A stretch of DNA of 64,000 nt from Chiloscyllium plagiosum. Its lineage: Eukaryota. The notes below the pieces were generated by a model. The model had not been told where the DNA came from. It ran no database searches and saw only the letters and a program-made list of their open reading frames with translations. Shown here in pieces: positions 1,451 through 57,895 of this stretch. Each line of letters begins with the position of its first letter. Position 1 is the stretch's first letter. Position numbers and translations under genes: made by a program. The stretch lies in contig NC_057753.1 of the NCBI RefSeq assembly GCF_004010195.1, positions 101,439 through 165,438 on the forward strand, written 5' to 3'.

Positions 1451-1511
1451 TTTGGACTTGGGAGGAAACCAGAGCCCCCAGAGGAAACCCACACAGACAT
1501 GGTGGGGGAGG

Positions 1512-2660: not shown

Positions 2661-3037
2661 AAAATATGCAAAATCCACACAAACAGTTGCCCTGAGGCTG
2701 GAATGGAACCCGGGTCCCTGGTGCTGTGAGGCAGCAGTGTTAACTACTGAACCACCATGCCATCCATGTTGATTTGATGACTGAGCGAATCCCTTCACAC
2801 ACCTAATGCAGGTGAACGTCCTCTCCCTGCTTTGAGCTGGCTGGTGTTCTTGCAGATCCCATCATATCAGAGAATTCCTACAGTGTGGAAACAGGCCCTT
2901 TGGCCCAACAAGTCCACACCGACCCTCCGAAGAGTAGCCCACCCAGACCCATTCCCCTACCCTATTACTCTACATTTACCCCTGTCTAATGCACCACACC
3001 TACACATCCCTCAACACCATAGGACAATTTAGCATGG

Positions 3038-3601
3038 AGAAAGTGAGGACTGCAGATGCTGGAGATCAGAGCTGAAAAATGTGCTGCTGGAAAAGCGCAG
3101 CAGGTCAGGCAGCATCCAAGGAACAGGAGAATCGACGTTTCGGGCATAAGCCCTTCTTCAGGTCGATTCTCCTGTTCCTTGGGATGCTGCCTGACCTGCT
3201 GCGCTTTTCCAGCAACACATTTTTCAGCTCTGATCTCCAACATCTGCAGTCCTCACTTTCTCCTCCGTTTCGGGCATAAACCCTTCTTCAGGAATGGCAC
3301 AGATAATCAGGCAGGCAAAGATAATCCTCATTCCTGAAGAAGGGCTTATGCCCGAAACGTCGATTCTCCTGTTCCCTGGATGCTGCCTGACCTGCTGCGC
3401 TTTTCCAGCAACACATTTTCAGCTCTGATCTCCAGCATCTGCAGTCCTCACTTTCTCCTCCGTTTTGGGCATAAACCCTTCTTCAGGAATGGCACAGATA
3501 ATCCTCATTCCTGAAGAAGGGCGTATGCCCGAAACGTCGATTCTCCTTCTCCTTGGATGCTGCCTGACCTGCTGCGCTTTTCCAGCAACACATTTCTAAG
3601 C
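3038..3601. mobile_element. Penelope-like element family 1 terminal-repeat cluster (inverted and tandem copies) with hammerhead-like motifs
   Basis: Several copies of ggagaaagtgagg...gctggaaaagcgcagcagg...cttcttcagg on both strands; duplicated flank gacaatttagcatgg (3023-3037, 3602-3616). Confidence 0.8.
3334..3361 (+). ncRNA. Minimal hammerhead-ribozyme-like motif, PLE family 1 (second copy at 3511-3538)
   Basis: CTGAAGA-A-GGGC(TTAT)GCCC-GAA-ACGT-C: core boxes, helix II and palindromic helix III; helix I is weak. Confidence 0.6.
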
Positions 3602-3665
3602 GACAATTTAGCATGGCCTAGCCACCCAAACCTGCACAATTTTGGATTGTGGGAGGAACGCCACG

Positions 3666-4320
3666 CACTGAGTTCCTTCCTGCCTCGGAGCAGATGAACA
3701 GCCTCTCCTGAGTGTGAGCCCGATGGTTGGGCAGCTGAGGAAACGCCTCCCCACATTCCAAGCAGGCGAACAGCCTCACCCTGGTGTGTGAACCGTGGGT
3801 GTACCTTGCAGGCTGGGGTGAGTGGTCTGCCCCTAGTGTGGGTTGGGGGGAGGGGGGGGGGGGTGTGTGTGAAATCCTTCCCACACTTGGCACACGGAAA
3901 TTAGATTGGAATAGATTCCCTACAGGAGGGAAACTGTGGCCCTTTGGCCCCACACCGGCCCTCTGAAGAGTTACCCACTCCCCTAGCCTATATTTACCCC
4001 TGCCTAACGCAACTGGCATTATGGGCAATTTAACTGACCTGCACATCTTTGGCTTGTGGGAGGACACAGGGAGAATGTGCAAACTTCACACAGACAGTCG
4101 GTTAAGGCACCTCATCCTGGTGCTATGAGGCAGCAGTGCTAATCGAACGGTCTCTCTCTCTTTCTTTCTGGTGCAAAGCTGGTCGCGTTGGTGAATTTCT
4201 CCCCACACTCAGCGCAGGCGAACCATCCTGTTCCAGTCTGAGCTTGGAGCTGGGGATGTGTGTGGAGCTAGTGCGTGCACACAGGGCACTCGACCGGCCT
4301 CTCTCCAGTGCGAGGTGATG
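3666..4320 (-). pseudogene. Decayed C2H2 zinc-finger remnant interrupted by a SINE
   Basis: Minus-strand translations give HTRVRLFACLECGEAFPQL..HRAHTQERLFICSEAG (3666-3815) and RTGERPVECPVC / FACAECGEKFT (4165-4315), with stops, frameshifts and lost Zn ligands. Confidence 0.6.
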
Positions 4321-4668
4321 CTGGCCCCCTGGGTCTATCCCGTTGCAAAGTGCTGCCCTTCCAAACAAGACTGCCTCAGTCTGCAGCCAAACCTTCGCCT
4401 GGGGATCCGGGGAGAGCTGGGAGGACTGCGCGTGTGCCTGGGTGGGCGGCCGTGTCGTCACAATGGGCTGCGCCTCGACGGACCAATAAGAAACCTCGGA
4501 GGACCGGAAGGAGTTCGGTCCTCCTGCCAATCAGAGCCCCCCCATTGTTTGAATGCGGAAGTTGGGCCATGAGCTTCTGAAGTTGCTACTGCCCCTCTCT
4601 CTCTGAATGAAGATTGAGCTTCAGCCCAGACTGCAGCTTCCCCCTTTCTCCGTCCAACATCTGTGAGT
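4316..4668 (+). promoter_or_regulatory. ZNF promoter / first-exon cassette, copy 1 (no intact downstream ZNF exon seen)
   Basis: CCAAT at 4483 and 4527, CCGGAAG and GCGGAAGT ETS sites, CpG-rich, donor GTGAGT at 4663; clearly homologous to 38612-39174 and 54.7-54.9 kb. Confidence 0.7.
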
Positions 4669-30600: not shown

Positions 30601-33600
30601 CCCTGGACACTATCGGTGATTTAGCATGGCCAATCCACCCGAACCTGCACATCCCAGGGCACTATGGGTAATTTAGCATGGCCAATCCACCCTAACCTGC
30701 ACATCCCTGTGTCACTATGGGAAATTTAGCATGGCCAATCCACCCTAACCCGCACAACCCTTCACAGTGTGGGTAATTTAGCACAGCCAATCCACCTTAA
30801 AATGCACATCCCTGGACACTATCGGTGATTTAGCATGGCCAATCCACCCGAACCTGCACATCCCAGGGCACTATGGGTAATTTAGCATGGCCAATCCACC
30901 CTAACCTGCACATCCCTGTGTCACTATGGGAAATTTAGCATGGCCAATCCACCCTAACCCGCACAACCCTTCACAGTGTGGGTAATTTAGCACAGCCAAT
31001 CCACCTTAAAATGCACATCCCTGGACACTATCGGTGATTTAGCATGGCCAATCCACCCGAACCTGCACATCCCAGGGCACTATGGGTAATTTAGCATGGC
31101 CAATCCACCCTAACCTGCACATCCCTGTGTCACTATGGGAAATTTAGCATGGCCAATCCACCCTAACCCGCACAACCCTTCACAGTGTGGGTAATTTAGC
31201 ACAGCCAATCCACCTTAAAATGCACATCCCTGGACACTATCGGTGATTTAGCATGGCCAATCCACCCGAACCTGCACATCCCAGGGCACTATGGGTAATT
31301 TAGCATGGCCAATCCACCCTAACCTGCACATCCCTGTGTCACTATGGGAAATTTAGCATGGCCAATCCACCCTAACCCGCACAACCCTTCACAGTGTGGG
31401 TAATTTAGCACAGCCAATCCACCTTAAAATGCACATCCCTGGACACTATCGGTGATTTAGCATGGCCAATCCACCCGAACCTGCACATCCCAGGGCACTA
31501 TGGGTAATTTAGCATGGCCAATCCACCCTAACCTGCACATCCCTGTGTCACTATGGGAAATTTAGCATGGCCAATCCACCCTAACCCGCACAACCCTTCA
31601 CAGTGTGGGTAATTTAGCACAGCCAATCCACCTTAAAATGCACATCCCTGGACACTATCGGTGATTTAGCATGGCCAATCCACCCGAACCTGCACATCCC
31701 AGGGCACTATGGGTAATTTAGCATGGCCAATCCACCCTAACCTGCACATCCCTGTGTCACTATGGGAAATTTAGCATGGCCAATCCACCCTAACCCGCAC
31801 AACCCTTCACAGTGTGGGTAATTTAGCACAGCCAATCCACCTTAAAATGCACATCCCTGGACACTATCGGTGATTTAGCATGGCCAATCCACCCGAACCT
31901 GCACATCCCAGGGCACTATGGGTAATTTAGCATGGCCAATCCACCCTAACCTGCACATCCCTGTGTCACTATGGGAAATTTAGCATGGCCAATCCACCCT
32001 AACCCGCACAACCCTTCACAGTGTGGGTAATTTAGCACAGCCAATCCACCTTAAAATGCACATCCCTGGACACTATCGGTGATTTAGCATGGCCAATCCA
32101 CCCGAACCTGCACATCCCAGGGCACTATGGGTAATTTAGCATGGCCAATCCACCCTAACCTGCACATCAATCCACCCTATCGTGCACATCCCGGGACACC
32201 ATGAATAATTCAGCAAGGCCAATCCATTCTAACCGCAAATCCCAGGGCACTATGGGTAATTTAGCATGGCCAACTGATCCTAACCTGCACATTCCTGGAC
32301 ACTATGGGTAATTTAACATTGCCAATCCACCCTGACCTGCACATGCCACAGCACTGTGGGTAATTAGCTTGGCCAATCCACCCTAACGTGCACATTCCAG
32401 GGGACTGTGGGTAATTTTCCGTTGGCAATCCACCCTATCGTGCACATCCCGGGACACCATGAATAATTCAGCAAGGCCAATCCATTCTAACCGCAAATCC
32501 CAGGGCACTATGGGTAATTTAGCATGGCCAACTGATCCTAACCTGCACATTCCTGGACACTTTGGGTAATTTAGGATGGCCAAACCACCCTAACATGCAG
32601 ATTCCTGGACACTATGGGTAATTCAGCAAGTCCTTTCCACCCTAACCTACATGCCCCTGGGCACTATGGATAATTTAGCATGGCCCATCCAGCATAACTG
32701 ACACCTTCCTGCAAACTATGGGTAATTCAGCATAGCCAGTCAACCCTAACCTGCACATCCTACACACTATGGGTAATTTAGCACAGCCAATCCACCCTAT
32801 CATGCACATCCGTGGGCACGATGAGTAATTTAGCACAGCCAATCCACCCTGACCTGCACGTCCCTGGGCACTATGGGTCATTTAGCATGGCCAATTGACC
32901 CTATCATGCACATCCCTGGGCACAATGAGTAATTTAGCTTGGCCAAGCCACCCTAACCTACATACCTTTGGGCACTATGGGTAATTTAGCACGGCCAATC
33001 CACCCTAACATGCACATCCCTGCACACTGTGGGTAATTTAACATGGATAATTCACATTAACCTGCACATTTCTGGACAGTATGGGTAATTTAGCATGGCC
33101 ATCCATCCTGACATGCACTTTCCTGCACACTATGGACAAGTTCGCATAGCCAATCCACCTTAACCTACATATCCCTGTGATACTGTGGGCAATTTAGCAT
33201 GGCCAATCCACACTAACCCGCACATCCCTACACATAATGGGGAATGTAGTATGGCCAATCCATCCTAAGCTGTACATCCTTGGACACTATTGGTAATTTG
33301 CACGGCCAATCCACCCTCACCTACATATCCCTGGACACAATGGGTAATTTAGCATGGCCAATCCACTCTAACCTGCAAATCCCAGGGCACTATGGGTAAT
33401 TTAGCATGGCCAAACCACCCTAACATGCAGATTCCTGGGCACTATGGGTAAATTAGCATGGCTAATCCAATGTAACCTGCACATCCCAAGGCACTATGGG
33501 TAATATAGCATGGCCATCCACCCTAAGCTGCACATCCCTGCACACTGAGTAATTTAGCACAGCCAATCCACCCTATCATGCATGTCCCTGGACGCTATGG

Positions 33601-35905
33601 GTCATTTAGCATGGCCAACCCACCCTATCATGCACATCCCTGGGCACGATGAGTAATTTAGCTTGGCCAATCCACCCTAACCTACATGCCTCTTAGCACT
33701 ATGGGTAATTTAGCATGACCAACCCACCCTAACATGCACATCCCTGCACACATGGGTAATTCAACATGGATAATTCACACTAACCTACACATTTCTGGAC
33801 AGTATGGGTAATTTAGCATAGCCAATCCACCCTAACCTACATATCCCTGTGATACTGTAGGCAATTTAGCATGGCTAATCCACCCTAACCTACACATCCC
33901 TTCACAATGTAGGTAATTTAGCTTAGCCAATCCACCCTAACCTGCACTTTCCTGCACACTGTGTGGAATGTAATATGGCCAATCCATTCTAACCTGCATA
34001 TTCCAGGGCACTATGGGCAATATAGCATGGCTAATTCACCCTAACTTGCACATCTCTGGACACTATGGGGAATGTAATACGGCCAATCCATCCTAACCTG
34101 CAAATCCCTGGGCACTGTGGGTAATTTAGCAAGGTCAATTCACTCTAACCTGCAACATGCTTGGATGCTACGAGCAATTTAGCATGGCCAATCCATTCTA
34201 ACCTGCACATCCCAGGCATTCTGGGAAATTTAGCATGGCCAATCCACCCTAACCTGCACATCCCTGGGCATTATGGATAATTTAGCATGGCCAATCCACC
34301 CTAACCTGCACATCCCAAGGCACTATGGGTAATTTAGGATGGCCAATCCACCCTAACCTGCACATCCCTGTGTCACTATGGGAAATTTAGCATGGCCAAT
34401 CCATTCCATCCTGCACATCCCAGGTCACTATGGGTAATTTAACATGGCCAATCCACCCAACTGCATATCTCTGCACAGTACGGGTAATTTAGCATGGCCG
34501 ACTCACCCTAACCTGCACATCCCTGGAGATTATGGATAATTTAGTACGGCCAATCTATTCTAACCTGCACATCCCAGGGCACTGTGGGTAATTTTACATA
34601 GCCATCCACCCTACCCTGCACATCCCTTCAGTGTGGGTAACTTAGCATAGCCAATCCACGCTAACCTGCACATCCCAGGGCACTATGGGTAATTTAGTAT
34701 GGCCAATCCATTCTAATCTGCACATGCCAGGGCATTATGGCCATGCTAAATTACCCATCATGTTAAGGGATGTGCAGGTTAGGGTGGATTGGTCATGCTA
34801 AATTACCTAATTCACCCTAACCTGCACATCCCTTCACACAACGGGTAAATTTGCACAGCCAATCCACCCTAACATGCACATCCCTGGAGACTATGATTAA
34901 TTTAGCACATCCCATCACACTATGGGTAATTTAGCATAGCCAATCCACCCTAACCTGCACATCCCTGGGCACTATGGGTAATTTAACATTGCCAATCCAC
35001 CCTAACCTGCACATGCCACAGCACTGTGGGTAATTAGCTTGGCCAATCTACCCTAACTTGCACATTCCAGGGGACTGTGGGTAATTTTCCGTTGCCAATC
35101 CACCCTATCGTGCACATCCCCGGACACCATGAATAATTCAGCATGGCCAATCCATTCTAACCTGCAAATCCCAGGGCACTATGGGTAATTTAGCATGGCC
35201 AATTGATCCTAACCCGCACATTCCTGCACACAATGGGTAATTCAGCATAGCCAGTCAACCCTAACCTGCACATCCCAAGGCACTATGGGTAATATAGCAC
35301 GGCCATCCACCCTATCATGCACATCCTACACACTATGGGTAATTTAGCACAGCCAATCCTCCCTGACCTGCACGTCCCTGGGCACTATGGGTCATTTAGC
35401 ATGGCCAACCCACCCTAACATGCACATCCCTGCACACTATGGGTAATTTAACATGGATAATTCACATTAACCAGCACATTTCTGGACAGTATGGGTAATT
35501 TAGCATGGCCAAACCACCCTAACCTACATATCCCTGTGATACCATGGGCAATTTAGCATAGCCAATCCCCCCTAACCTGCACTTTACTGCACACTGTGGG
35601 GAATGTGGTATGGCCAATCCATTCTAACCTGCAACATGCCTGGACACTGAGGTACGTAGTATGGCCAATCCGTCCTAATCTGCAAACCCCAGTGCACTAT
35701 GGGTAATTTAGCATGGCCAATCCCCCCTAAACTGCACATCCCAGGGCACTATGGGTAATGTAGCACAGCCAATCCACTCTATCCTGCACATCCCTTCACA
35801 ATGTGGATAATTTAGCTCTGCCAATTCCCCAGAAACTGCACATCCCGGGACGCTATGGTAATTTAGCACCACTATTCCACCCGAACCTGCACATGCCTGG
35901 GCAGC
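27608..35905. repeat. 8.3-kb satellite of a 52-bp SINE-derived monomer (about 160 monomers)
   Basis: Consensus ccctgggcactatgggtaatttagcatggccaatccaccctaacctgcacat repeated head to tail; continuous with a minus-strand SINE tail at 27488-27607. Confidence 0.97.
28461..32168. repeat. Higher-order repeat core: 209-bp unit (4 monomers), about 17.7 near-identical copies
   Basis: Marker cttcacagtg recurs at 28461, 28670 ... 32014 (exactly 17 x 209). Confidence 0.92.
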
Positions 35906-35926
35906 ATGGGTACCTTAGCTTGGTTG

Positions 35927-36769
35927 TCACTGGTGTGTTCTCTGGTGCGTCAGCAGCACGGAGAGCAGAGTGAAGCCTTTCCCACAGGCCGGGCAGACGT
36001 AAGGCCTCTCGCCGGTGTGGACCCGCTGGTGGGTCAGCAGGTATGACGAGCGTGTGAAGGCCTTGCCGCACTGCGAGCAGGCGAAGGGCCTCTCCCCCGC
36101 GTGGACCCGCCGGTGGGTCAGCAGCGTGGACGAGTCGCCGAAGGCCTTCCCGCACTCGGGGCAGCTGAAGGGCCTCTCCCCGGTGTGGACCCGCCGGTGG
36201 GTGCGCAGGTTGGACGACTTGGTGAAGCCCTTCCCGCACACGGGGCAGCTGAAGGGCCTCTCCCCCGTGTGGACGGGCCGGTGGGTCAGCAGGTGGCACG
36301 ACTGAGTGAATCCCTTCCCGCACTCGGAGCAGACGAACGGCCTCTCCCCGGTGTGCACCCGCTGGTGCTTCTGCAGGGTGGACGAGTCCTTGAAGGCCTT
36401 CCGGCACTCGGGGCAGCTGAAGGGCCTCTCCCCAGTGTGGACCCGCCGGTGCCTCAGCAGGGCGGAGGAGTCTCTGAAGCCCTTGCCGCAGTCAGAGCAG
36501 GCGAACGGCCTCTCGCCCGCGTGGACCCGCCGGTGGGTCAGCAGGGCGGCCGAGTGGGTGAAGCCCTTCCCACAGACGGGGCAGCTGAACGGCCTCTCCC
36601 TGGTGTGGACCTGCCGGTGTCTCTCCAACGACGATGACTTAGTGAAGCCCTTCCCGCAGTCGGGACAGGCAAACGGCCGCTCCCCGGTGTGGACGCGCCG
36701 GTGGATCTCCAGCGCGGAGGGGGAGCGGAAACCGATCCCGCAGTGGCCACATTTCCAGGGTTTCTCCAT
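35927..36769 (-). CDS. C2H2 zinc-finger protein (gene A), 280 aa, 10 tandem fingers, no KRAB/SCAN/BTB domain in the ORF
   Basis: ORF from ATG at 36769 (MEKPWKC...) with ten CxxC-x12-HxxxH repeats joined by TGERP-type linkers; very GC-rich codons; the ORF-track start at 36817 is a TTG. Confidence 0.93.
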
Positions 36770-37099
36770 GATGCAGGCGCCCGTGAAGCGAGATCCTCGT
36801 CCTGAGACAGTAGCCAAGCACGCAGTCTCTGCTCACGATAAATGCTGCCTTATCAGGTTGTGCAATTGGGTAAAACTCTCCCCATCGTCAGTTCACAGGA
36901 ACGCTCTCTACGTGCACTTCAAAGCTATCCCAGGTGGTTACAACCTTTTGAAACAAACAGAACCAACAACCAGTTACTTCCTCTGGACTTAAATGCTGAT
37001 GGTAGTCACTCCCTGGTAAATCAAGCAACTCTGATGCGATGATACTACGGCCTTAAGGGATCCGTTTCGTTCTTTTTAAAGGAAAGGTTTTCAGAGAGA

Positions 37100-37345
37100 G
37101 CCAAAGTGAGGCCTGCAGATGGTGGAGAGTCAGAAACAAAAAGAGTGTTGCTGGAAAAGCACAGCAGGTCAGGCAGCATCCGAGGAGCAGGAGAGTCAAT
37201 GTTTCCAACATCAGCCCTTCAGCAGGAATGAAGGGCTCCCGGTCCTGATGAAGAGCTGATGCTCAAAACGTCAACTCTCCTGCTCCTCTGACGCATACTG
37301 ACAGGCTGTGCTTTTCCAGCACCACTCTTTTTGATGCTGACCCTC
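37100..37345. mobile_element. PLE family 1 fold-back insertion (similar copies at 22980-23172, 47890-48062, 55495-55695)
   Basis: gctggaaaagcacagcagg... followed by its reverse complement ...gctgtgcttttccagc. Confidence 0.72.
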
Positions 37346-37412
37346 CACAGTTTTTGACTTGAAGACAGAGATGCCAAAATGTCTATTTGGAAAGCCAATA
37401 AGCTCAACAACT

Positions 37413-37940
37413 TGTGAGGCCTTGTATTTTTTTTTTATTAAGAAAGTTTGAACAATAGAAGCAGCCTGAATGGGTGTGGTCCAGCTCCCACTGAAACAGG
37501 TTTTTTTTTATTTTAGCTTTCAGCAATTGCTGATGGGGTCTTGAAGAAGCAGAAGCTATTTTTTCCCCCTCTTGGTTACAACTAAAGGCTGGGGGAATCT
37601 CTTCCTGTTGCTTGAGACATAGTCTATCTTCTGAAATTGCCCGTTGCCAAGAGTATGTTTATGGGATGTTGCTATATTGGAACAGTTACTGTTTCAAAGT
37701 CAACTAATCTATTATTCTATTCAATTGTCCAATAGAATTACAGCTAAGCCAATTATTTTCTTTTGTCATATTTTAACTACAACATATGAATAAGTTGTGT
37801 TTTGCTTTAAGTCACGTACTTTAGCCAATTGAATCACATCTGGAATGCAATACCTTACACTTATCTTTAAACTAAGAAAACGTTAGGGTCTAAGCTACCT
37901 TCTCAATATACTTTGAGGGAGGTTGGCCTGGTCGATTACA
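37413..37940. mobile_element. Solo LTR (family Y, opposite orientation) within the gene A 5' region
   Basis: TGT...ACA termini; reverse-complement similarity to 44593-45246; no clear TSD. Confidence 0.6.
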
Positions 37941-38437
37941 CTTAGTTTGAGATTTGTGTCTGAAATTCCTCCCCTTAAAATATCTTGGAAATGGAACATA
38001 CTAAAAGATAGGGCAAACATTCAGAACAGAGTCTAGAATAGAGTGATACTGGTGCTGTGCTTTTCCAGCACCACTCTAATCTCGACTCTGATTCCCAGTC
38101 CTCACTTTTGCATGGAAATTCAGATCAGACCATTCCAGTTGGAGCAAATTACTGCAGATGCTGGAATCTGTACCGAAAACAAAAAAAAAACCCCTGGGCA
38201 TCTAGACTGGAAACCTCAGTTTGCACTCTCTCCCTGGATGTTGCCTGACCCGCTGTGACCTCTCCAGAATTTGTTTTGCTTTCAGACAATTCCAGTTCCC
38301 TTGCAACATTCCTTCTTCTCTCGACCCCCAAAAGCTGTAAGTCTCCACCCCACATTCCCTGCCTCCCTTCTCATTACTTTGGCGCAGCTCATATCCCACT
38401 CCCCATTGCCCTGAAGGGTCTGATCGACCCGTCCCAC

Positions 38438-39174
38438 GCTTACCTCTTCCTGTCCTGCTCAGAGAGTGAGGGCTGAAAAATCTTCGGGTAGACAAGAGCG
38501 GAATAGGACGCAAATGGGTTTGATGCAGGCGTCCAAGGAAGGAGCTGGTGTCTGGAATGAAGGAGGATAAAATACAGCAGCGTGTGTGTGTGTGTCCCAG
38601 AGGAAGTGCATTGATGCTGGTCCCCCAGTTGCAAACGCCCCCTGGGTCTATCCCGTTGCAAAGTGCTGTCCTTCCAAACAAGACTGACACAGTCTGCAGC
38701 CAAACCCTCTGCTGGGATTCCAGGGGAAAGAGTTGGAGAGGGGGACTGCGCATGGGCGGGAGGACTGGCCACTGACGTCATAAAGAGCGATGTCCGGATT
38801 GACCAATAGGAAACCTTGGAGGACCGGAAGGAATTAGGTCCTCCTGCCAATCAGAGGCCCCCCCCCGTTGTCTGAATGCGGAAGTTGGACCATGAGCTCT
38901 TGAAGTTGCTGCTGCTGCTGTCTCTCTGAAACTGCGCATGGGCGGGAGGACTGGCCACTGACGTCATAAAGAGCGATGTCCGGATTGACCAATAGGAAAC
39001 CTTGGAGGACCGGAAGGAATTAGGTCCTCCTGCCAATCAGAGCCCCCCCTGTTGTCTGAATGCGGAAGTTGGACCATGAGCTCTTGAAGTTGCTGCTGCT
39101 GCTGTCTCTCTCTGAATGAAGACTGAGCTTCAGGCCAGACTGCAGCTTCCTTCCTCTGTCCAACATCTGTGAGT
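38438..39174. promoter_or_regulatory. Putative bidirectional promoter and first exons of genes A (-) and B (+), cassette copy 2
   Basis: TGCGCATG (NRF1-like), GGGCGG, TGACGTCA (CRE), paired CCAAT boxes and ETS sites, all doubled by a 186-bp tandem duplication; plus-strand donor GTGAGT at 39169, minus-strand donor GAG|GTAAGC at 38443. Confidence 0.75.
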
Positions 39175-41074
39175 GCAGCACCCTCTCTTTTCCCACCTCC
39201 TTTTCTCGTTCTGGAATTAAACTGTTGGCTTGCAGGGAGTGAAGGGAAAGGAGTGAATCAAAGGGGAGGGGGGCAAACTTTGGAAAGGGTGGTCTGGGTC
39301 AGTTGGCCAACATGGCAGATGCAGTTCAATCCGAAGTTGAAGACGTTTGACAGAAAGGAGGAGCTTTGTTTAAAGCGTGCCAAGTGGGCTGCAAAAACTG
39401 TCCAGTCAACCAAAGTCATCAGGCAGGTCAGCAAGCAATGAGCAAGGCAAGTGCTATATATTCGCCTTCCTCGTAACAGGAATCGAGCTTCGAAGTGGGA
39501 TGTCTTCCTGCAGCTGTACAGGACCTTGGTGAGGCCACACCTGGAGTTGTTGTTTCTATTTTTCTCTTACACCCTTTTACTCCCTTGGCTTTACATATGT
39601 AAGTGCCTGTCTAAATGTAGAGGCCCATTCCTCATGTTCAATGTGAAACGGGGTGGTTTCTTCAGGAGATGGCTATCAGTTAACTGGAGAGTATAGTAAA
39701 CTCTGTCATCCCTTGTTGGTGTAAACATTGAATAGTGCTGAGTCCTAAAGTCGGTCCAACCAGTCCATGCCAACCATAATCCCAAACTAAAACAGCCTGC
39801 GCTTGCCCCACAGCTCTCCAAACATTTCTTACTCATGTACACATCTAGATGTCTTTTAAATGTTGTAACTGTACCCGTATCCATCATTTCCTCTGGGAGT
39901 ACATTCCACACACGAACCACTCTCTGTGTAAAGAAATTGCCCCTCCTGTCTTTTTCAAATCTTTCTGTTCTCACCTTAAAATTATGCCCCCTAGTCTTGA
40001 AATCCCCCACCCTTGGGAATAGATACCTGCCATTCACCTTATCTGTACCCCTCCTGACTTTATACACGCCCATAAGGTCACCCCTCAATCTCCTGCACTC
40101 CAGTGAAAAATGGCCCAGCCTATCCAGCCTCTCCTTATTTCCAAACCCTCCATTCCCAGCAATAACCCTGGTCAATCTCTTCTGAACCATCTCCAGCTTA
40201 ATATTATATCCTTCCTCTAACCAGAACTGGACACAACACTTCAGAAGAGAGTCTTGTAGAACCTCAGCATGAGCATTGTAACAAACAAGGACAGATGCAG
40301 GAATAATAAATCTGTAAGGGGACCAACCGGGTGGGGCACATCTTTTCTGAGAGCTCTTTGTGTGTGCCACTCTCCACAGTTAGATTTGGATTTACAGCAG
40401 CTCCTTTGTCATTCTCTCCTTTCATCGATGGTGCAGCGACACAGTCTCGTGAGCTTTAGAAATTGTACCGGTTTATTTTCGGACTTCTATGTAGTCAAAG
40501 AGCAGGAGAGGCAATGATTGCGTACAGACCTTATTAAATCTATGGCTTGAAATCTATAAGACGTTTTTGTTTGATGGACAAACTGAGAAATCTTTACCTT
40601 GGTATCGCAGATTACAAATAAGGTGTCTCCAGTGTGAGCTGAGGAAGTTATTCTTTCAAGAGGTTGTTAGTCTGTGGAGTGCAGAAAGCAGTGAAGGCTG
40701 GGCACCATCGAATATATTCAAGATGGAGTTCAGCTGATTGTTTTGAGCAACAAAGAAGGAGATGGTTATGGGGGGAAGGCAAGAAAATGGTTTAAAGATC
40801 ACAATAGAACAGTTCCGACCTGATCAGTGCTGGCGCAGGCTCCAAGAGACCCCTGCTCCCGATTCTGTGTCCAGGGGTGTCAGCATCAATCAGCATCAAT
40901 CCGACCCTTCAGGATGAGGTACAGCAGAGCGGGAGATTGAGGGCGAGTCTGTGGGATGGAGATTTGCAGCTTTTGAGGGAATGAGAGAGAAAAAAGGTTT
41001 TGTGGAAATTAGAATTGGCTGTTCGGAATTTCTTTGGCGTCTTCAGTACTGACAACAATGACTTCTTTTCACAG
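39169..41074 (+). other. Predicted intron 1 of gene B
   Basis: GTGAGT donor; acceptor cttcttttcacag|gattct, homologous to the gene C acceptor ccatttgcag|gatatc. Confidence 0.6.
39745..40260 (-). mobile_element. CR1 LINE 3' fragment in the gene B intron
   Basis: SLECRRLRGDL...NFFTQRVVRVWN. Confidence 0.85.
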
Positions 41075-41313
41075 GATTCTGGGAGGGGAGGATTTGCGAA
41101 TGGGGAGCCGAAACCGAACGTCTGACAGAGTAATTTGGGGCACGTTGGTCGAATTGAGTTTGGAATATCTTGGAGAGAATTGGCATGTAATCGGAACTCG
41201 GTGAGCCTAGGCCAGCGCTCTGACTTTGAAGAATTGTCAGCGAGGAGAGACTCTGGATGTGTCCTCGGAGTGAATAAGCCTCCGGCTTTCCCTTTGAACC
41301 TCTACCCCAGCCC

Positions 41314-42072
41314 ATGGAGAAGCCGTGGAAGTGTGCGGACTGTGGGAAAGGCTTCCTCTCCCCGTCGGCGCTGGAGACCCATCGGCGGGTGCACACCGGG
41401 GAGCGGCCGTTCACCTGCCCGGCCTGCGCCAAGGGCTTCGCGCAGCTCTGCAGCCTGCTCTCCCACCAGCGGGTCCACACCGGGGACAGGCCGCACACCT
41501 GCCCCGAGTGCGGCAAGGGCTTCGCCCACTCCTCCGCCCTGCAGCGGCACCGGCGGCTGCACACCGGGGAGAGGCCGTTCTCCTGCCCGGCCTGCGGGAA
41601 AGGCTTCACCCAGTCGTGCAGCCTGCAGAGCCACCGTCGGGTCCACACCGGGGAGAGGCCGTTCTCCTGCTCGGCCTGCGGGAAAGGCTTCACCCACTCC
41701 TCGGCCCTGCTGAGGCACCGGCGGGTGCACACGGGCGAGAGGCCCTACTCCTGCCCCGCCTGCGGCAAGGCCTTCAGCCAGCTGTGCAGCCTGCAGACCC
41801 ACCGACGGGTCCACACCGGGGAGCGGCCCTTCCCCTGCCCCGAGTGCGGGAAGGCCTTCAGCGACTCCTCCGCCCTGCGGAAGCACCAGCGGGGCCACAC
41901 CGGCAAGCGGCCCTTCAGCTGCCCCGAGTGCGGGAAGGCCTTCGTTCAGTCCTCCCACCTGCTGAGGCACCGGCGGGTCCACACCGGGGAGAGGCCCTTC
42001 GCCTGCCCCGTGTGCGGGAAGGGCTTCACCCGCTCCTCCCACCTGCGGAGGCACCAGCCGGTCCACAGCTAA
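41314..42072 (+). CDS. C2H2 zinc-finger protein (gene B), 252 aa, 9 tandem fingers
   Basis: ORF MEKPWKC... with nine intact fingers and TGERP linkers; good Kozak context (cccATGg). Confidence 0.93.
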
Positions 42073-44592: not shown

Positions 44593-45246
44593 TGTTATGG
44601 ACCAGACCAAACCCCCTCAAAGTATATTCAGAAGATAGCCTCGATCTGAACTTTCTCTGATTATAAAGGCAAGTGCCTGGCGTTGCTTTCCGGATTCAAT
44701 TCGATTGGTCAAACAGCCAACCTTGAAGCAAAACACACTTTATTCATCCACTACGTTAAAATACAGTGAATGAAAGAACACATTGGAATAACTTAACACT
44801 GTAGGAAAGCTTAACAGAATAATAGATGATTTACCTGCTAAACAGCATTTGTTCCATTATAGTAACATCCCATATTCAACTCCTTGGCGAAAGGCAAACT
44901 CTGTAAAATAGATTGTCTCACAGGCACTTCACCAGTGCAGGAGGATAAAAAAACAAGAGAAATCTGAGAGAGAGAAGAGAAGAGAGAGAGGTGTACTGCA
45001 ACTTCCAAACCCCAGCTTCAAGACCCCAACAACTGCTACCGAAAAACTAACACTCAACAGCCCTGACTCTGGGGGAGCTTGACCCCACCCATTCAGGCTG
45101 CTTCTATTGTTCCAACCCTTTTAAAAAGAAACCCCAAGGTCTCAAATAAATTGGATTCAAATAAATGACTCAGTGCCCCTATGTTAGAACTTTCTTTTTA
45201 AAACAAAAGACCTCAAATATAGCTCTTAAAGCATAATATCGTCACA
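44593..45246. mobile_element. Solo LTR (family Y) inserted in a CR1 3' tail
   Basis: TGTTAT...GTCACA termini, flanks ggcc/ggtc; the CR1 tail resumes at 45247. Related copies at about 47730-48559, 53855-54020 and, inverted, 37413-37940. Confidence 0.75.
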
Positions 45247-47729: not shown

Positions 47730-48559
47730 TGCTGTGGACCACACCAAGCCCCCTTCAGATTTGTCAAGGAGATAGCCTGGACCCGAAGCCTCTTCTTATT
47801 TAAAGGTAAAGTAGAAGATGCTGTGTTCTGAATGCAATTCAATTGGTCACACTGCTTGGATTTAAGCAAAACACATTGCATTCTGAATTGGGAGTGTGGT
47901 GCTGGAAAAGCACAGCAGGTCAGGCAGCATCCGAACAGCAGGAGAGTTGGTGTTTCGGGCTTTTACCCAAAACATCGATACTCCTGCTCCTCGGATGCTG
48001 CCTGACCTGCTGTGCTTTTCCAGCACCACACTCTCGACTCCAATCTGCAGTCCTCACTTTTGCCACACCGTATTCTTATTCTATGGTTAAAATACAGCGG
48101 GAAGAAAGAAAAATTGGTATAACTTTGCTTTATTGGAAAACTGAACACAACAATAGATTGTTTAACCATTGAACAGCAACTATTCCAATATAGTAACATG
48201 CCATAATCACGCCCTTGGCAAAGGCAAATTCAGTGAAATAAATATGCGATAGCAGGAAGGGAAGCTTTTAGGTGTAACAGAGAGAGATGTAGCAGTTTCC
48301 CCCCCCCCCCCCCCCCCAAAAAATGACTGAAAGCTAAACTAAATCCCTGGTTGTGTGGGGAGCCTGACACCACCCATTCAAGCTGCCTCTATTGTTCCCA
48401 CTTGAATAAAAAAAAACAATACACCCAGGGATCTCACAAGCTGCTTATCGGCTTGGACCAGACAGCTGGGGACCTATGGCTCAAAACCTCTCTCTGATTT
48501 TAAAAAAGAACAACCCAGGACAAAATACATCTCATAATAAATCTCATAGTATTGTCACA
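47730..48559. mobile_element. Solo LTR (family Y) with nested PLE fold-back
   Basis: Colinear similarity to 44593-45246, ending ...ttgtcaca. Confidence 0.6.
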
Positions 48560-50294
48560 GAGGAGGGCATTTTTAGAGAGTGATCCACCAGCCCACAAAC
48601 AGTAACCACAATGTGAGACAAGAAATAATGGGAGCTTCAGTTGGGTGAATAGCAGTAATTACAGGTAATTGTAATTGACGTGTAGATTGCAAAAAAGAAA
48701 TCCGATTGGCAATAGTAACGTTGCTGAAAACTACATAAAAAGATTTGCAAGACAGTCTCTCCATTCTGGAAGTGACGACACGGTGGCAGTGATATCTGGG
48801 TGTCTGCTAGGATCCCAGGCTCTCCTGTTTTATCTCCCTGTTCCCATAGAGCAAGACATCTCTCCCCAGCTCTGCTGCCATTTCTGCTGAGCAGTTCCTC
48901 CCATGAACACCGTTCAGATCAATGAAGGTTTCCAACTGAGGGCACCAAACTATGTCAATCAGAAAGAGGTGGACACAGAGCAAAACTTTGCACAGGCTGC
49001 ACTCTGCCTGCATTCACCTCCAGGCAGAGAACCTGCACTGCGTCTGCTCTGGGCAGTCGGCCCACACTGCGCCCTCCAGCCCTTTGCAAAACTCTGAAAA
49101 GTCGAGAGTAGAGTGGTGCTGGAAAAGCACAGCAGGTCAGGCAGCGTCCGAGGAGCAGGAAAATCGATGTTTCATCAGGAATGGAGGGAGGGAGCATCGG
49201 GGTGGAGAGATAAATGGGAGAGGGGTTGGGGCTGGGGAGAAGGTAGCATAGAGTACAATAAGTGAATGGGGGTGGGGATGGAGGTGATAGGTCAGAGGGG
49301 AGGGTGGGGGAAGGTAGCAAAGAGTACAATGTGTGGATGGGGGTGGGGATGGAGGTGATCGGTCAGAGGGGAGGGTGAAGAATTCTGAAGAACCTCTCTC
49401 CCCTTTTAACAGCTTTCAGTCAACGAAGGCTGGCAATTTCCCGCCTCCCCCTCACTGGTTGACCATCTGGGACACTGAGGTATAATCCCAGCAGAGAACA
49501 AAACAAGAAAAGGGAAACTAAATTCGCAATGAGTGCAGCTAGTGCTTAATATTTGTTTGTTAGGAAGTACGCCAGAAATTGGGGGTCTCCCAGTCCTCTG
49601 CTTAAAGGGGAGAAATGAATAGAAGGGTTCACACCTGGAATGATCTTCTGCAGGAGAGTGGTGGATGCGGGTACCATTACAACATTTAAAAGGCATTTGG
49701 ACAAGTAAGGAAAGGTTTGGGAAGGATACAGGCCAGGAGCAGGCAGCTGAGGACTAGTTTACTTCGGGGTTATGGTTGGCATGGACTGATTGGACCCAAG
49801 GGTCTGTTTCTGTGCTGCATGACTCTGGAAGAGTGCAACACAGGAACAAGCTCTTCTCACCCAACATTTCTATGCTGGCCCTGATGCGATTCTCAACTGA
49901 TTTTTCTCCCCAGAGTTGAAATGCCTGATACTGGGGCGCGTGCATTTAAAGTGAGGGGGTGGGGGGTTCAAAGCAGTTGTGAGAGGCAAGTTTTTTTTTA
50001 CTCAGAGTGGTAGGAGTCTGGAATGTACATTGGGGGTGGAGGGAGGTTTAAGGGACTTTTGGGTAAACACAAGACCACGGGCAGGCAGACAGGATTAGTT
50101 TAAATTGGCATCATGTTTGGCACAACATTGTGGGCTGAAAGGCCTGTTTCTATGCTGTACAGTTCTATGTTTAATCCCCACTTGTCTGCACATGCTCCAA
50201 AACTGTTCCTTTAGTGTCGTAGGGTCAAAATCCTGGAATTCCTTCCCTGATGGCACTTTCTCTCATCCGTATATAACTATCAGTACCCATCTTT

Positions 50295-50762
50295 AGATTA
50301 GATTATATTTGATTCCCTACAGTGTGGAAACAGACCCTCCGGCCCAACAAGTGCACACCGACCCTCTGAAGAGTAACCCACCCAGACCCATTCCCCTACA
50401 CATCTCTGAACGCTCTGGGTAATTTAGCATGGCCAATCCACCCTAACCTGCACATCCCTGGGCACTATGGGTAATTTAGTACAGCCAATCCATTCTAACC
50501 TGCACATCCCTGGGCACTATGGGTAATTTAGCATAGCCAATCCACCCTAACCTGTACATCCCTGAACACTTTGAGTAATTTAGCACGGCCAATTTCTGCC
50601 TGCACATCTTTGGAGCGTAAGAGGAAACAGGAGCACTCGGGGGAACCCCACACCGACATAAGGGGGAGAATGTGCAAACTCCACACACACAGTCGCTCCG
50701 GGGCTGGAATCAAACCCAGGTCCCTAACGCTGTGAGGCAGCAGAGCTAACCGCTGTGCCACT
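50295..50762 (-). mobile_element. V-SINE with about 4 tandem 52-bp units
   Basis: Complete SINE with an internal array at 50410-50605. Confidence 0.88.
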
Positions 50763-53079
50763 CCAAATGGGTCACAATATTATCTCATCATAAGTAGAGC
50801 GTTTGTTAACAGAGAAACAGTATTTGAATGGAAAGGATAAATTTAACTTGATATAGTTCATAAAACAAAGACAGGATTCCAGTTCCACAACTCTGTGTTT
50901 CCCGTGGGCGAGGGGATAAAGGGTTTTATGCTCAGATATTGGACAGAGGAGCAAGTTTCAGTGAAAGTGAAACCCTGTGCTTTGTTCGGACTCAAACTGC
51001 GTGGTTGGGAGGAGGGAGTTTTGCAAAGTGTCCTCAGCTGGAGGGCTGCGCAGTGCGGGTTCTCTGTCTGGAAGTGAATGCAGGGAGAGTGCAGACTGTG
51101 GAAGGTTTTGCTCTGTGTCCGCCTCTTTCTGATGGACAATGACACGTTTTTGCTCCTACAGTTTGTAACATTTATTTGTCTCGTTCAAAGGATGACCCTC
51201 CTCGTGTTCACCAGTACAATTTTGTTGTTTTTAAAGGAATATAATTTTATTAAACGCTAAATCAACACAAGACAATAGCATGTCTGGTATCCTATAATGT
51301 GTATCTGACTTTTACTTAAGGTTCTCTCATTTTCGTTTTCAATTATTTCTGGTCTTCTGCACAAGTTGCATTTTGGGAAAGCAAATCTTAGCAGGACTTA
51401 TACACTTAATGGTAAAGTCCTAGGGAGTGTTGCTGCACAAAGAGACCTTGGAGTGCAGGTTCATAGCTCCTTGAAAGTGGAGTCGCAGGTAGATTGGATA
51501 GTGAAGAAGGCATTTGGTCTGCTTTCCTTCATTGGTCAGGGTATTGAGTACAGGAGTTAGGAGATTGCGGCTGTACAGGACATTGGTTAGGCCACTGTTG
51601 GAATATCGATAAAAGAGACCTAAGGGGCAACTTTTTCACGCAGAGAGTGGTACGTGAATGGAATGAGCTGCCAGAGGATGTGGTGGAGGCTGGTACAATT
51701 GCAACATTTAAGAGGCATTTGGATGGGTACATGAACATGAAGGGTTTGGAGGGATATGGGTCGGGTGCTGGCAGGTGGGACTAGATTGGGCTGGGATATC
51801 TGGTCGGCATGGACAGGTTGGACCAAAGGGCCTGTTTCCGTGCTGTATACCTCTATGACTGTATTTCCAGTGATGGAGTTTAATCAACAACTCGAATCCA
51901 TCCTAACTCCGCAGGACTCTCCAGTTATCCCCAATGTATCTCCCCATAACCCTGCAATTCTCTCAAGTATTCATCCAATTTTATTTTGTTACCAATGATT
52001 GTCTTTGCTTTCACTTAGCTCACAGGGAGTTCCACGACCACCCTACGGAAAAGGCATCTTTCTCTGCCCCTCATGATTTTATAAGGCCAATTCTCAACCT
52101 CCTGCGTTCCAGTGAAAATAAAGTCCCAGCCTATCCCCATAACTCAATCCCCCATTCCTGGCAGCATCCTGATAAATTTCTTCTCCAGCATAATAATATC
52201 CTTCCTATAACAGGGTGACAAGAGCTGGACACAGTAGCCCAGAAGAGGCCTCATCAATGACCTATACAACTGCAACATGCAAAGGTCTGAGCAATGAAAG
52301 TGAGCATGCTAAATGTCTTCTTAACCATCCTGACAATATGTGATGCAAACTTCAAAGGATTATGTACCTGAACCCCGAGGTGTCTCTGTTCTATAACACT
52401 ACCAAAGACCCTACTTTTAATTATATAAGTCCTGCCCTTGTTTATTTTACAAAAAGTGCAATACCTTAGATTTATCCAAATTCAACTCCATCCGCCATTC
52501 TCCAGCCCATTGACCCAATTGATCAAGATCTCTCTGTAATCTTAGATAACCTCCCTCACTGTCCACTACACCAGCAATCTTAGTGTCATCCACAAACTTA
52601 CTAACCATGCTTTTATCAACAAATAATTCAGGATATAGTGTTTGGATTTTCAAAAAGCATTCAAAATGATGTCAAACACCAAGTTATTGTTCAAAATTGA
52701 GAGTCTGTATTTATTCAGAATTTAGAGGCTTGCTGAAAAGAGACACGTTTTATGAAAAATTTTCACCTTGTATGCATCAGTGCATTTGCAAGGTTATCAA
52801 TGTAAAGGGAAACATGATTTTATATTGGATGAGAAGTGAGTGCGAATTGATTAACAAGTGGATTGGTAGAGACACTGCCATGGAGAATGCACCAGTTCAA
52901 TGATGACTGACAACTTAACTGTCCAGCATTGTTTATACCAGGCTGCTGTACAAATGTGTGCACTGGAAGGTGCAGATATGAAGACATATAGTTTATGAAT
53001 TGCATTTTTAGAGAGAAAGAACATGTACACACATTACTCTTGTTTCAATTTAACAACTTTTCTATTGTTCAGTCATCAA

Positions 53080-54469: not shown

Positions 54470-54879
54470 CACTATGCGCCAATCCCCGCAGTTCTTGAGT
54501 CCTGGGTGTTTGCCGATGGGGGGGGGCGAGGCCAGTAATGGCGACTGGAACTCCCACAAGGCCGCGCGCCACAGAAACCATTTGATCATTCGACCAGAGC
54601 ACTGTCCCGGGAGAGCGCATATGTCGCAGAGGCGAACAAACCGCGCATGCTTTCCCGCTGACCAATACGATAGTGCGCCAGGGTCCATTGTTCGCTCGGT
54701 GGAGGAGTTGACCAATGGAACTGGCCCCCCTGCCAAACAGAACCCCCCCCCCCCCCCCTATTGTCTGAATGCGGATGTTGGACCATGAGCTCCTGAAGAT
54801 GCCGCCTTCTCTGTCTCTCTGAATGGAGGTTGAGCTTTACCCCAGACTGCAACTTCCTTCCACTGTCCAACAAGTGAGT
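54470..54879 (+). promoter_or_regulatory. Promoter / first exon of gene C, cassette copy 3
   Basis: CpG-rich; ZNF143/SBS-like ACTGGAACTCCCACAAGGCCGCGC (54544-54567), CGCGCATGC, CCAAT at 54662 and 54712; 3' half homologous to copies 1 and 2; donor GTGAGT at 54874. Confidence 0.72.
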
Positions 54880-56011
54880 GCAACACCCTCTTTCCCATTT
54901 CTCTTGCTGACACTCAATTAGATTGGGTGGCACCAGCCTAAGTGAATTGAATCCAGGGAGGAGACAGACTCTGGAAAGGTTGGTCCAAGACTTTCTTTCG
55001 TGCTTACAGGGATTAATAGCCTTTTCTGTGTGTGTGTGTGTGTCTCTGTCTCTTTCTCTCTCTCTCTCTGCCTCTGTCCGTCTCTGTGTCTCTCTCTCGA
55101 CTTGAAACATTAACTCTTTTTTTTCTTCCCGAAGATGCTGCCAGACCTGCTGAGTTTCATTGGCAATTTCTTTTTGTTATTATCTGGTCCATGTGCATTA
55201 CATGCTTGTTGTAATAATGCATCTTCTCGATCATACTCTTATTTCAGTTTTTTGCTGTATTATATATTTCAGTGATGTGTTTTACAGTACAGAAAGCGTC
55301 CATTCTGAAGCTCGTGTCCATATTGACTCTTTATGCAGAAACAGTCAGTCCCATTTGCCCTTGATATTCCCGTAGCCCACCTATTTTTTGTCAAGTGCCA
55401 ACCTGGTTTCCACTTTATAATTATTAATGGCCTTTGTGTCCACCATCCTCATGGGAAAACAGTTTCAGGTCATGATCACTCACTCATTGCAGCAAGTGCA
55501 GACTGCAGACGCTGGAGAGTCAGAGTTGAGAGGTGCGGCGCTGAAAAAGCGCAGCGGGTCAGACAGCATCCGAGGGGCAGGAGAGTCGATGTTTCGGGCA
55601 TAAGCCACATTTCTGATGAAGAGCTTATGCCCAAAACATCCACTCTCCTGCTCCTCGGATGCTGTCTGACCTGCTGTGTTTTTCCAGCACCTCACTAATA
55701 AAGTACTCTGTATAATTGAGTTTTACACGAGACCGTAAACATAGGTGAGCAGCCTGTAGGATTATTTACAGGCATCTGCATTGAAGGCAGGAAGAAGCTT
55801 ATAGGTTCTGTCAATAGGATGACTTGGCACTTCGAGAAAAATGGACAGGGTGTTTATTATGTACAGCAAACTGAGAATGGAGGGAGAGTGAGTGTAATGG
55901 ATATTTACAGCTCTTTATGGAATGATAGAACGATCCACAGAAGCTAGAATTGTCTGTTCTCAATGTCTATTCTTTCCTGACAATGATAACTTTTGTAAAC
56001 TCCATTTGCAG
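54874..56011 (+). other. Predicted intron 1 of gene C
   Basis: GTGAGT donor and ccatttgcag acceptor, followed by sequence homologous to the start of gene B exon 2. Confidence 0.6.
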
Positions 56012-56337
56012 GATATCTGAAGGAGAGGATTTGCAGATGGAACTCTCAAACCAAATGCAACATCTCGATTCATCAGGACCTGAATAGCTTCCGCCTTTGA
56101 ATTGAGGAGGAGAAATGTTTGCTTGTTCTGAGCAGCTGGGTAACTGGGAAAGCACTGAAACAAACACACAAGTGGGTGCGTTCCAGTGCCCTGACTGTGG
56201 GGAGAGCTTTAATCAGTTGCTCATTCTGAAAACATTGCAACACTGTTCACCTCAGGGAGAGATTGTGCAGAGGTTCTGTGCATGGATGACTTTGTGACTG
56301 ATCATCAAGCCTAGAGATACACAAGGACGCCCACGCC

Positions 56338-57012
56338 ATGGAGAAACCGTGGAAGTGTTGGGACTGCGGGAAGGGGTTCAGTTTCTCGTCTGCGTTGGAA
56401 ACGCATCGTAACGTTCACACCGGCGAGAGGCCGTTCACCTGCTCCATGTGCGGGAAGGGCTTCACTCAGTCCTCCAGCCTGCTGAAACACCAGCGGGTCC
56501 ACACCGGGGAGCGGCCGTTCAGCTGCTCCGAGTGCGGGAAGGGCTTCTCTCAGTCGTCCAACCTGCTGCGGCACCAGCAGGTCCACACCGGGGAGAGGCC
56601 GTTCGCCTGCTCCGAGTGCGGCAAGGCCTTCACTCAGGCCTCCAACCTGCTGCGGCACCAGCGCGACCACACCGGGGAGAGGCCGTTCGCCTGCTCCGAG
56701 TGCGGCAAGGCCTTCGCCCAGTCAGCTCACCTGCTCAACCACAGGAGGGTGCACACCGGTGAGAGGCCGTTCAGCTGCGCCGTCTGCGGGAAGACCTTCA
56801 CTCAGGCCTCCAACCTGCTCATGCACCGGCGGGCCCACGCCGGGGAGAGGCCGTTCACCTGCTCCGAGTGCGGGAAGGCCTTCAATGATTCGTCCACCCT
56901 GCTGAGGCACCAGAGGGTTCACACGGGCGAGAAACCGTTCACCTGCCCTCGCTGTGGGAAAGCATTCATTCATTCATCTAACCTACTGAGACACCAGCGA
57001 GGACACAAGTGA
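56338..57012 (+). CDS. C2H2 zinc-finger protein (gene C), 224 aa, 8 tandem fingers
   Basis: ORF MEKPWKC... with eight intact fingers; Kozak gccATGg. Confidence 0.93.
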
Positions 57013-57184: not shown

Positions 57185-57895
57185 ACCGCTTGGAAGCAGG
57201 CCATTCAGCCCGATGAGGCCACGCCGACCCTCCAAAGAGCATCCCACCCAGACCCAAACCTTCCCCCCCCGTCCCTGACCCTGTGACACTGCATTTCTCA
57301 CAGCTAACCCGCCCAGCCTGCACATCCCAGGGCACTATGGGACAATTTAGCATGGCCAATCCACCCGAACCTGCACATCCCAGGGCACTATGGGACAATT
57401 TAACACGGCCAATCCACCCTAACCTGCACATCCCAGGGCACTGTGGGTAATTTAGCACAGCCCATCCACCCTAACCTGCACATCCCGCGGCACTGTGGGT
57501 CATTTAGCACAGCCCATCCACCATAACCTGTACACCCCGGACACTGTGGGTAAATTAGCATGGCCAATCCACCCTAATCTGCACATCCCTGGGCACTGTG
57601 GATAATTTAGCATGGCCAATCCACCCTAATCTGCACATCCCTCGGCACTGTGGGTAATTTAGCATGGCCAATCCACCCTAACCTGCACATCCCTGGGCAC
57701 TGTGGGTAAATTAGCATGGCCAATCCACCCTAACCTGCACATCGTTAGACTGTCAGAGGAAACCCTCGTAGACACAGGTTGGGGGGGGGGGGGGGGTGAC
57801 TGTCTGTGTGGCGTTTGCGCAGTCACCTCGAGGGTCGAATCGAACCCAGGTCCCTGCCGCTGTGAGGCAACAGCGCTAACCACGGAGCCACCTTT
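57185..57895 (-). mobile_element. V-SINE with about 8 tandem 52-bp units, in the probable 3' UTR of gene C
   Basis: Array at 57316-57742; AATAAA at about 58007 and 58037 downstream. Confidence 0.85.

Follow-up and report, generated by a model that had tools for sequence, protein, structure and literature searches.

A shark cluster of three finger-only zinc-finger genes with a shared 5' end, probably the product of whole-gene duplication

The 64,000-nt stretch of Chiloscyllium plagiosum DNA analysed here (the window) carries three finger-only zinc-finger genes, A, B and C, together with the debris of further copies. These genes probably have no effector domain, and their shared 5' end has probably been inherited through duplication of the whole gene. 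Homology between genes B and C is highest in the core promoter (89% identity) and exon 1 (83%), and it extends through the start of the intron (75%), the end of the intron (71%) and the leader of the second exon (67–72%). From this continuity through both intron ends and the leader, we infer that the gene was copied as a whole and that repeats were inserted in the intron afterwards. The better preservation of the promoter and exon 1 suggests constraint, as judged from sequence comparison, and gene conversion may have contributed to the likeness of these parts. The coordinates of all features are collected in Table 1.

Table 1. Genes, module copies and remnants in the window
Feature	Position	Strand	Evidence
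Dead finger array on the left of c1 and pointing away from it, broken by repeats	2774..4305	-	DNA finger HMM, 9.8–26.9 bits
Module copy c1; donor GT at 4663	4324..4662	+	BLASTN, motifs
Gene A ORF, 280 aa, 10 C2H2 fingers	35927..36769	-	ORF list
Gene A exon-2 leader behind the new acceptor	36770..36944	-	Contigs; 71%, z=8.4 to the gene C dead-finger leader
Gene A intron, 1499 nt, GT..AG	36945..38443	-	Spliced contigs
Gene A first exon, seen part; donor GAG/GTAAGC	38444..38723	-	X1 record 1, X2 record 7
Module copy c2, promoter-like, with gene B first exon	38637..39168	+	BLASTN, motifs, donor; exon 39086–39168 in spliced X1 contig
Tandem duplication of c2 promoter core, 186 nt, 98% alike	38745..39111	+	Self-comparison
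Gene B intron, 1906 nt, GT..AG	39169..41074	+	Spliced contig; both ends homologous to the gene C intron
Gene B exon-2 non-coding leader, decayed spacer, 239 nt	41075..41313	+	Spliced contig, sequence
Gene B ORF, 252 aa, 9 C2H2 fingers, no other domain	41314..42072	+	ORF list, Pfam
Module relic, intron start	48953–49042	-	Homology
Module relic, exon end	50905–50980	-	Homology (z=5.7 and 8.0 among the three relics)
Module relic, intron start	51040–51200	+	Homology
Gene C core promoter and first exon (c3); donor GT at 54874	54723..54873	+	Homology; splicing predicted
Gene C predicted intron, 1138 nt	54874..56011	+	Homology, splice sites
Gene C leader, 326 nt, with decayed spacer and dead fingers	56012..56337	+	Homology, finger HMM
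Gene C ORF, 224 aa, 8 C2H2 fingers	56338..57012	+	ORF list

The promoter-like module and its copies

An initial annotation of the window had placed a promoter and first-exon module at three sites. The module is full at 4.3–4.7 kb (c1) and 38.6–39.2 kb (c2), whereas the site at 54.5–54.9 kb (c3) has only the 3' core and the start of the intron in common with them; the upstream part of c3 reaches only z=2.2, with its second CCAAT changed to CCAAA and the ETS-like GGAA to GGAT. With the module at 38.6–39.3 kb as the BLASTN query, c1 (4324–4751) was matched at 84% over 283 nt and at 81% over 296 nt, a likeness of 81–84% across approximately 430 nt, and c3 (54752–54897) at 84% over 153 nt. A pattern scan of the window for a 26-nt core found it at 4550, 38873, 39057 and 54766, always on the plus strand, while 100 shuffled controls gave a mean of 0.00 matches and a largest value of 0. 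Metagenome pattern scans returned 0 matches for the cassette core and 0 for the MEKPWKC codons, and Rfam returned 0 for the whole window. The donor GTs of the three copies lie at 4663 (c1), 39169 (c2) and 54874 (c3).

The words found in c2 are CCAAT and CGGAAG, four times each, and TGACGTCA, GCGCATG and the GC box, twice each; TATA is absent. We take them to be NF-Y, ETS, CRE and NRF1 sites, the binding of these factors being putative. A TATA-less make-up of CCAAT, CGGAAG, TGACGTCA, GCGCATG and GC-box words is that of a broad, direction-tolerant promoter. The tandem duplication of 186 nt within c2 may be an assembly artefact; its junction is spanned by no contig among those listed. The first exons (39060–39168, 4553–4662 and 54769–54873) contain three ATGs, which stand at the same places in all three copies. 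One of them opens a frame of 17–19 aa, another a frame of 3 codons in strong context, and the remaining one a frame that in gene B continues for 60 aa across the junction.

Two of the three copies counted as full stand before a finger exon, and one full copy and three relics in the window do not. The copy without one is c1: no acceptor or finger exon was found 3' of it in the window, where a gap of 895 N (8489–9383) could hide one. The left arm of c2 (38637–38720) was considered as a dead finger because of a weak tblastn stretch at c1, and was rejected, as no finger-HMM match was found there. The three relics lie within 48953..51200, all of them lacking a finger exon. The exon-end relic and the intron-start relic on the opposite strand are approximately 70 nt apart, and an inverted copy of the latter, 90% alike, lies at a distance of 2 kb. 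A weak match (E 0.2) links the exon relic to the first 24 residues of a catshark gene model.

The setting is repeat-rich, in agreement with the TE-dense surroundings described before: 62% of the non-N bases have another copy within the window, satellite and finger arrays included. Four assembly gaps interrupt it. A 52-nt unit with a CCAAT word forms arrays at 27607–35923, 57317–57743 and 1134–1450, and also at 17585–17814, 19386–20205 and 50395–50593; by eye, it is present within the SINE-like repeats of the window as well. These arrays take up 8.3 kb from the stop codon of gene A and begin approximately 300 nt past the stop of gene C, none follows gene B, and one lies past the dead array of fingers to the left of c1. 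Copies of an old repeat, several hundred bases long and approximately 70% alike, were found at 37392–37933, 44600–45131, 47767–48454, 53863–53999 and 775–845, and one of them splits the former leader of gene A.

Splicing of gene B and predicted splicing of gene C

Donors and acceptors lie where they had been predicted, with introns of 1906 and 1138 nt leading to MEKPWKC ORFs, and leaders of 239 and 326 nt intervene between acceptor and ORF. The acceptors, ending in CAG, precede 41075 in gene B and 56012 in gene C. The predicted junction 39168>41075 was seen in a public contig of 317 nt (X1 record 3), in which 39086–39168 (83 nt) are joined to 41075–41307 (233 nt), and pieces of X2 and X6 contigs start exactly at 41075. 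The spliced X1 contig of gene B contains no exon between 39168 and 41075, and hence none for an effector domain, the presence of which had been named as something that would refute the initial reading. Past the gene B ORF, the word ATTAAA stands at 42430. Four public runs were compared over 36780–41330. X1 and X2 are guessed, and not recorded, to be RNA, and the spliced contigs differ from the window by approximately 2–2.5%, so that they may come from a sister species or a very recent paralogue. The strand of the transcripts was taken from the splice sites (GT..AG) and not from reads. X10, a single-cell run recorded as RNA of which approximately 2% was read, gave no junction of the locus among the 24 pieces and 15 joints listed from a much larger number. 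A pyrimidine tract at 41285–41310 has a CAG end three bases before the gene B ATG, and is unused in the contigs shown. In the leader of gene C, positions 56179–56228 score 12.7 bits with the finger HMM, against 7.8 for the best of 10 shuffled windows.

A divergent partner of gene B

A third intact MEKPWKC gene, A, was missed by the initial annotation. It lies on the minus strand (36769–35927) and encodes 10 fingers. Contigs of X1 and X2, which represent two organisms, join 38723 or 38699–38442 to 36942–36780, and the intron, 38443–36945, was obtained by shifting this joint by two ambiguous letters. The old acceptor of the family is still recognisable inside the intron, where it now reads CAA (37987–37985); its region is 73% alike to the gene C acceptor (z=10.6), and approximately 0.9 kb of inserted repeats lie in the same intron. 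Splicing to the homologous acceptor near 37984 was considered and rejected, as the contigs use 36944. An X6 contig joins 38263 to 37719, bypassing the dead acceptor; either an allele with an indel or weak splicing may account for this joint.

Lacking a cassette itself, gene A relies on the far side of the gene B copy. The first exons of gene A (minus strand, 38723) and gene B (plus strand, 39086) are arranged head-to-head, at most 362 nt apart, which lies within the 1 kb taken as the limit for divergent transcripts, the distance being that between spliced exon ends and not between mapped start sites. Since gene A is spliced from the far side of the gene B module, the module at 38.6–39.2 kb is likely a bidirectional promoter. 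The duplication unit proposed before, made of cassette, intron and finger exon, holds in that the homology of genes B and C indicates that these parts were duplicated together; it is not a strict unit, as the cassette is missing from gene A and the finger exon from one full copy and three relics.

The finger proteins

The proteins of genes A, B and C all begin with MEKPWKC, and fingers fill the ORFs from residue 5 with a period of 84 nt. They are tandem C2H2 arrays with TGEKP-type linkers, of 8, 9 or 10 fingers, each in one terminal exon. Stops in frame with the ORF lie 36 nt (B), 36 nt (C) and 63 nt (A) ahead of the ATG. As they are inside exon 2, they close off the frame of any upstream exon joined at these acceptors. 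The six-frame translation of the window had no KRAB match (best E 0.053 over 11 aa) with a profile which was built from 56 database domains and was positive in 62 of 146 fetched proteins; Pfam searches of 16 chosen non-finger frames found no effector family, and KRAB was found in 0 of 33 shark and ray proteins. The absence of KRAB and of other effectors, as claimed earlier for these ORFs, is therefore upheld. With the start points assumed, the ATGs ahead of the ORF number 6 in the leader of B, 10 in the predicted one of C and 2 in that of A.

The residues C, C, F, L, H and H are unchanged in 27 of 27 fingers, and variability is among the highest at helix positions -1, 3 and 6. The pN/pS ratio was 0.55 in the framework and 1.0–1.2 at the contact positions, from pairs that are not independent; as GC3 is moreover 0.86–0.96, we do not invoke positive selection. 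Because the zinc ligands are invariant, the contacts variable and the framework ratio 0.55, the three proteins are probably made and DNA-binding, as far as can be judged from these patterns. No kilobases of the window are richer in CpG than the finger ORFs with this GC3 (o/e 0.66–0.76, compared with 0.39 overall), which surpass the promoters, too.

The first finger is 65–78% alike among A, B and C, compared with 50% to later fingers. In other species it has P at position 1 in 17 of 19 cases and E at position 5 in 16 of 19, in a sample biased by a search that was aimed at it. The first finger is a candidate docking finger, and its position at the end of the array could by itself shield it from shuffling.

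Relatives in other sharks and rays

The closest proteins of the family all come from sharks and rays. In a full-length protein search, generic fingers were predominant and 3 shark or ray proteins stood among the 120 listed. A profile of the leader peptide matched models of Pristiophorus, Heterodontus, Carcharodon and Scyliorhinus; it had 14 matches, 4 of which were previously known (3 as seeds), and 2 (P0185 and P0186) were unrelated and were removed. The gene C leader matched P0179 with E 2e-8 and P0183 with E 6e-11. The window genes have a WK-type first finger and a GEDL..LDSSGPE leader, as do elasmobranch EKPWKC models, and the first finger of the family occurs also in the skate Amblyraja. 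A protein of Rhinoraja longicauda (P0109) with a PR domain and a PRDM9-like layout does not have this finger and was set aside.

The lineage specificity proposed by the initial annotation stands at the level of sharks and rays and not at a narrower one, the exon and the junction being present in the catshark. Thus, XP_072360167.1 (Scyliorhinus torazame) starts with MRKLD, like the first ATG frame of the cassette, and reads PSSLQHL and then ISEEE where the gene B junction reads PSSVQHL and then ILGGE. These matching start and junction peptides indicate that exon 1 and the phase of the junction are common to the catshark. The scores of the catshark model with c2, for segments picked by eye, were reached by 0 of 500 shuffles.

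The motif EK[PL]WK[CY] occurs 20 times in 178 proteins, 9 times after M, 5 times after G (once in a mammal) and 3 times after T. Ahead of the first finger stands either an intact finger with a normal HTG linker or a dead finger that ends in T-M. The gene C leader still scores as finger-like DNA, and the start codon of MEKP thus occupies the glycine position of the TGEKP linker. It would have arisen at this place by mutation once stops had become fixed upstream. Two models of distant sharks, P0179 of Pristiophorus and P0187 of Heterodontus, both end after FQTSV, and P0183 of Carcharodon ends after GFN, the place of the last upstream stop of gene C. In some relatives (P0180, P0191 and P0192; Pristiophorus models) the spacer is in frame with the fingers, which indicates that the family has at least two forms; 'finger-only' is a description that fits A, B and C but not the whole family. 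The public models are often frameshifted, fused or chimeric with neighbours, or read through the leader, and an exact look-up of the three window proteins in the protein collection retrieved 0 of 3.

Origin of the shared 5' end

The course of events that we propose would begin with an ancestor whose single reading frame ran from exon 1 through the spacer and further fingers. Its front part would then have acquired fixed stops, and translation would have come to start at an ATG in the glycine position of a TGEKP linker. The resulting short gene, made of a promoter, one intron and one finger exon, would have been copied many times, and some copies would have died or been cut by repeats. Gene A would have lost its own acceptor and first exon and been captured by the far side of the gene B promoter. 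The TATA-less, CCAAT/ETS-type promoter would be expected to give broad, low expression, and the upstream ATGs to damp translation of the finger ORF. Arrays of 8–10 fingers could cover a long DNA site and might act by occupying it or by way of finger-binding partners.

The module had been described as a portable cassette. One alternative reading is that of a promoter and first-exon unit which moves by itself, as a mobile element or through repeated gene conversion, and lands before finger exons. Exon 1 and the core promoter are indeed 83–89% alike, compared with 67–75% for intron and leader, and one orphan copy and three relics stand without a finger exon. The summed contig depth over the module is also high (1535–5568 in X6, against 8–23 in the unique flanks; 304 in X2, against 6–10), a value that is not copy number and points to many paralogues, not to a count of them. 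However, the homology, which fades into the intron, resumes at the far intron end and in the leader, and the catshark has the identical exon-leader join. Target-site duplications are absent, with only chance-like 6-mers at two of the three copies, no defined ends or terminal repeats were found at the module borders, where homology ends without sharp limits, and no Rfam match was obtained. Moreover, the gradient of identity fits constraint on the promoter. We thus consider a self-moving unit quite improbable and do not retain the term portable.

The locus could also be a transcribed but mostly non-functional pool of finger exons that copies itself, with leaders laden with upstream ATGs and little protein made. 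Dead arrays and relics adjoin the intact genes, each leader has 2–10 upstream ATGs, the stop of gene A runs into an 8.3-kb satellite with the nearest AATAAA approximately 9.6 kb away, many public models are frameshifted or chimeric, and the collection has no exact match to any of the three proteins. Against that, three ORFs of 224–280 codons have stayed intact beside broken leader fingers, their zinc ligands are invariant (27/27) with a framework pN/pS of 0.55, and gene A is spliced through a new acceptor in two organisms, which makes this reading improbable. It is very improbable indeed that a shark effector is hidden in an acidic peptide of exon 1 and the spacer, either brought in frame by alternative splicing or made as a separate upstream peptide. 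Such a peptide would fit the ATG positions common to all 3 first exons, the 60-aa frame that one of these ATGs opens in B across the junction and in the frame of the spacer, the spacer itself, which can be traced in five shark genera and shares the frame of the fingers in Pristiophorus models, and the acceptor-like tract that ends 3 nt before the gene B ATG. But this frame is interrupted in C and A, and in B it ends ahead of the ATG; contigs of X1, X2 and X6 cross the B leader without using the acceptor-like tract, the spacer has no Pfam family (the best lead from the protein atlas, at 0.82, is under 0.9), and the N-termini ahead of the spacer differ among models.

Duplication of whole genes encoding fingers alone is thus the reading that we prefer. 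That repeats are the targets of the A, B and C proteins is plausible, though we hold it tentatively, at somewhat less than an even chance. A wider proposal would be that sharks and rays have a finger defence on the scale of KRAB but without an effector, built from hundreds of copies of one small gene, in which the conserved, atypical first finger (WKC..Y-P-S-x-L-E) docks a corepressor and later fingers turn over and so track repeats, all under one inherited promoter and held in check by upstream ORFs that survive from the front half the protein has lost; on present sequence evidence we think this rather unlikely.

Comparison with known systems

The finger-only class is already known, shark finger expansions have been counted and members of the family are present in public models; duplicated promoters within a gene cluster are ordinary in themselves. 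In a literature search whose scope left out most subscription journals, no description of the gene structure of this shark family was found. What the locus adds is the spliced structure of a gene from a family that occurs across sharks and rays, and the three members described here are without an effector.

Head-to-head gene pairs on bidirectional TATA-less promoters are a known arrangement. Genes A and B resemble them in that first exons on opposite strands lie close together (at most 362 nt), and CCAAT, ETS-like, CRE and GC-box words stand between or beside these exons. In contrast to the usual pairs, gene A looks secondarily captured, with a new exon 1 and acceptor and a dead old acceptor.

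As in ZNF-only polydactyl genes, there are tandem C2H2 fingers without KRAB, SCAN or BTB, lineage-specific copies and pseudogenes mixed in; no KRAB, SCAN or BTB exon was found upstream, and the gene B contig has no extra exon. The survey of that class, which covers tetrapods only, lists 212 such genes in human, 1026 in zebra finch and 473 in frog (PMC3971581). The shark family differs in its common first exon, its dead-finger leader and its start derived from a linker. The public models named 'zinc finger protein 239/271/850-like' and 'gastrula zinc finger protein-like' from Heterodontus, Carcharodon, Cetorhinus, Scyliorhinus, Pristiophorus and Amblyraja are the family itself: they have the EKPWKC finger and remnants of the leader and no KRAB, and they carry automatic names borrowed from tetrapods. 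Fusions and read-through of the dead leader are frequent in the public models, which calls for caution in their use.

The cluster shares clustered paralogues, repeat-rich DNA, a single terminal finger exon, variable contacts and dead copies with tetrapod KRAB clusters (PMC5363842 and PMC10380595), but it has no KRAB and no upstream exon in frame. In one mouse KRAB cluster, promoters were reported to be markedly divergent (PMC5363842), whereas in the shark cluster the promoter is the best-kept part. Gene families lost in cartilaginous fish were found to be enriched for KRAB (PMC8455134).

The cyprinid FiNZ genes are likewise a KRAB-less expansion in fish with a common 5' end, as described in PMC10547256. 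There, the 5' end encodes a translated acidic N-terminal domain of 28 aa, whereas the shark 5' exon is out of frame, a comparison made by description only. The supplement of that study counts 475–3586 ORFs of at least 5 fingers in eight cartilaginous fish assemblies; its main text contains none of the shark terms looked for, and the link between fingers and transposons rests there on correlation across species (PMC10547256). Knock-down gave evidence that FiNZ genes repress transposons, and it also sets a precedent for the use of a shared 5' end as a target (PMC10547256). By analogy, the common first exon of the shark genes is a practical handle, in that one probe could find the copies and one knock-down reagent could reach many of them.
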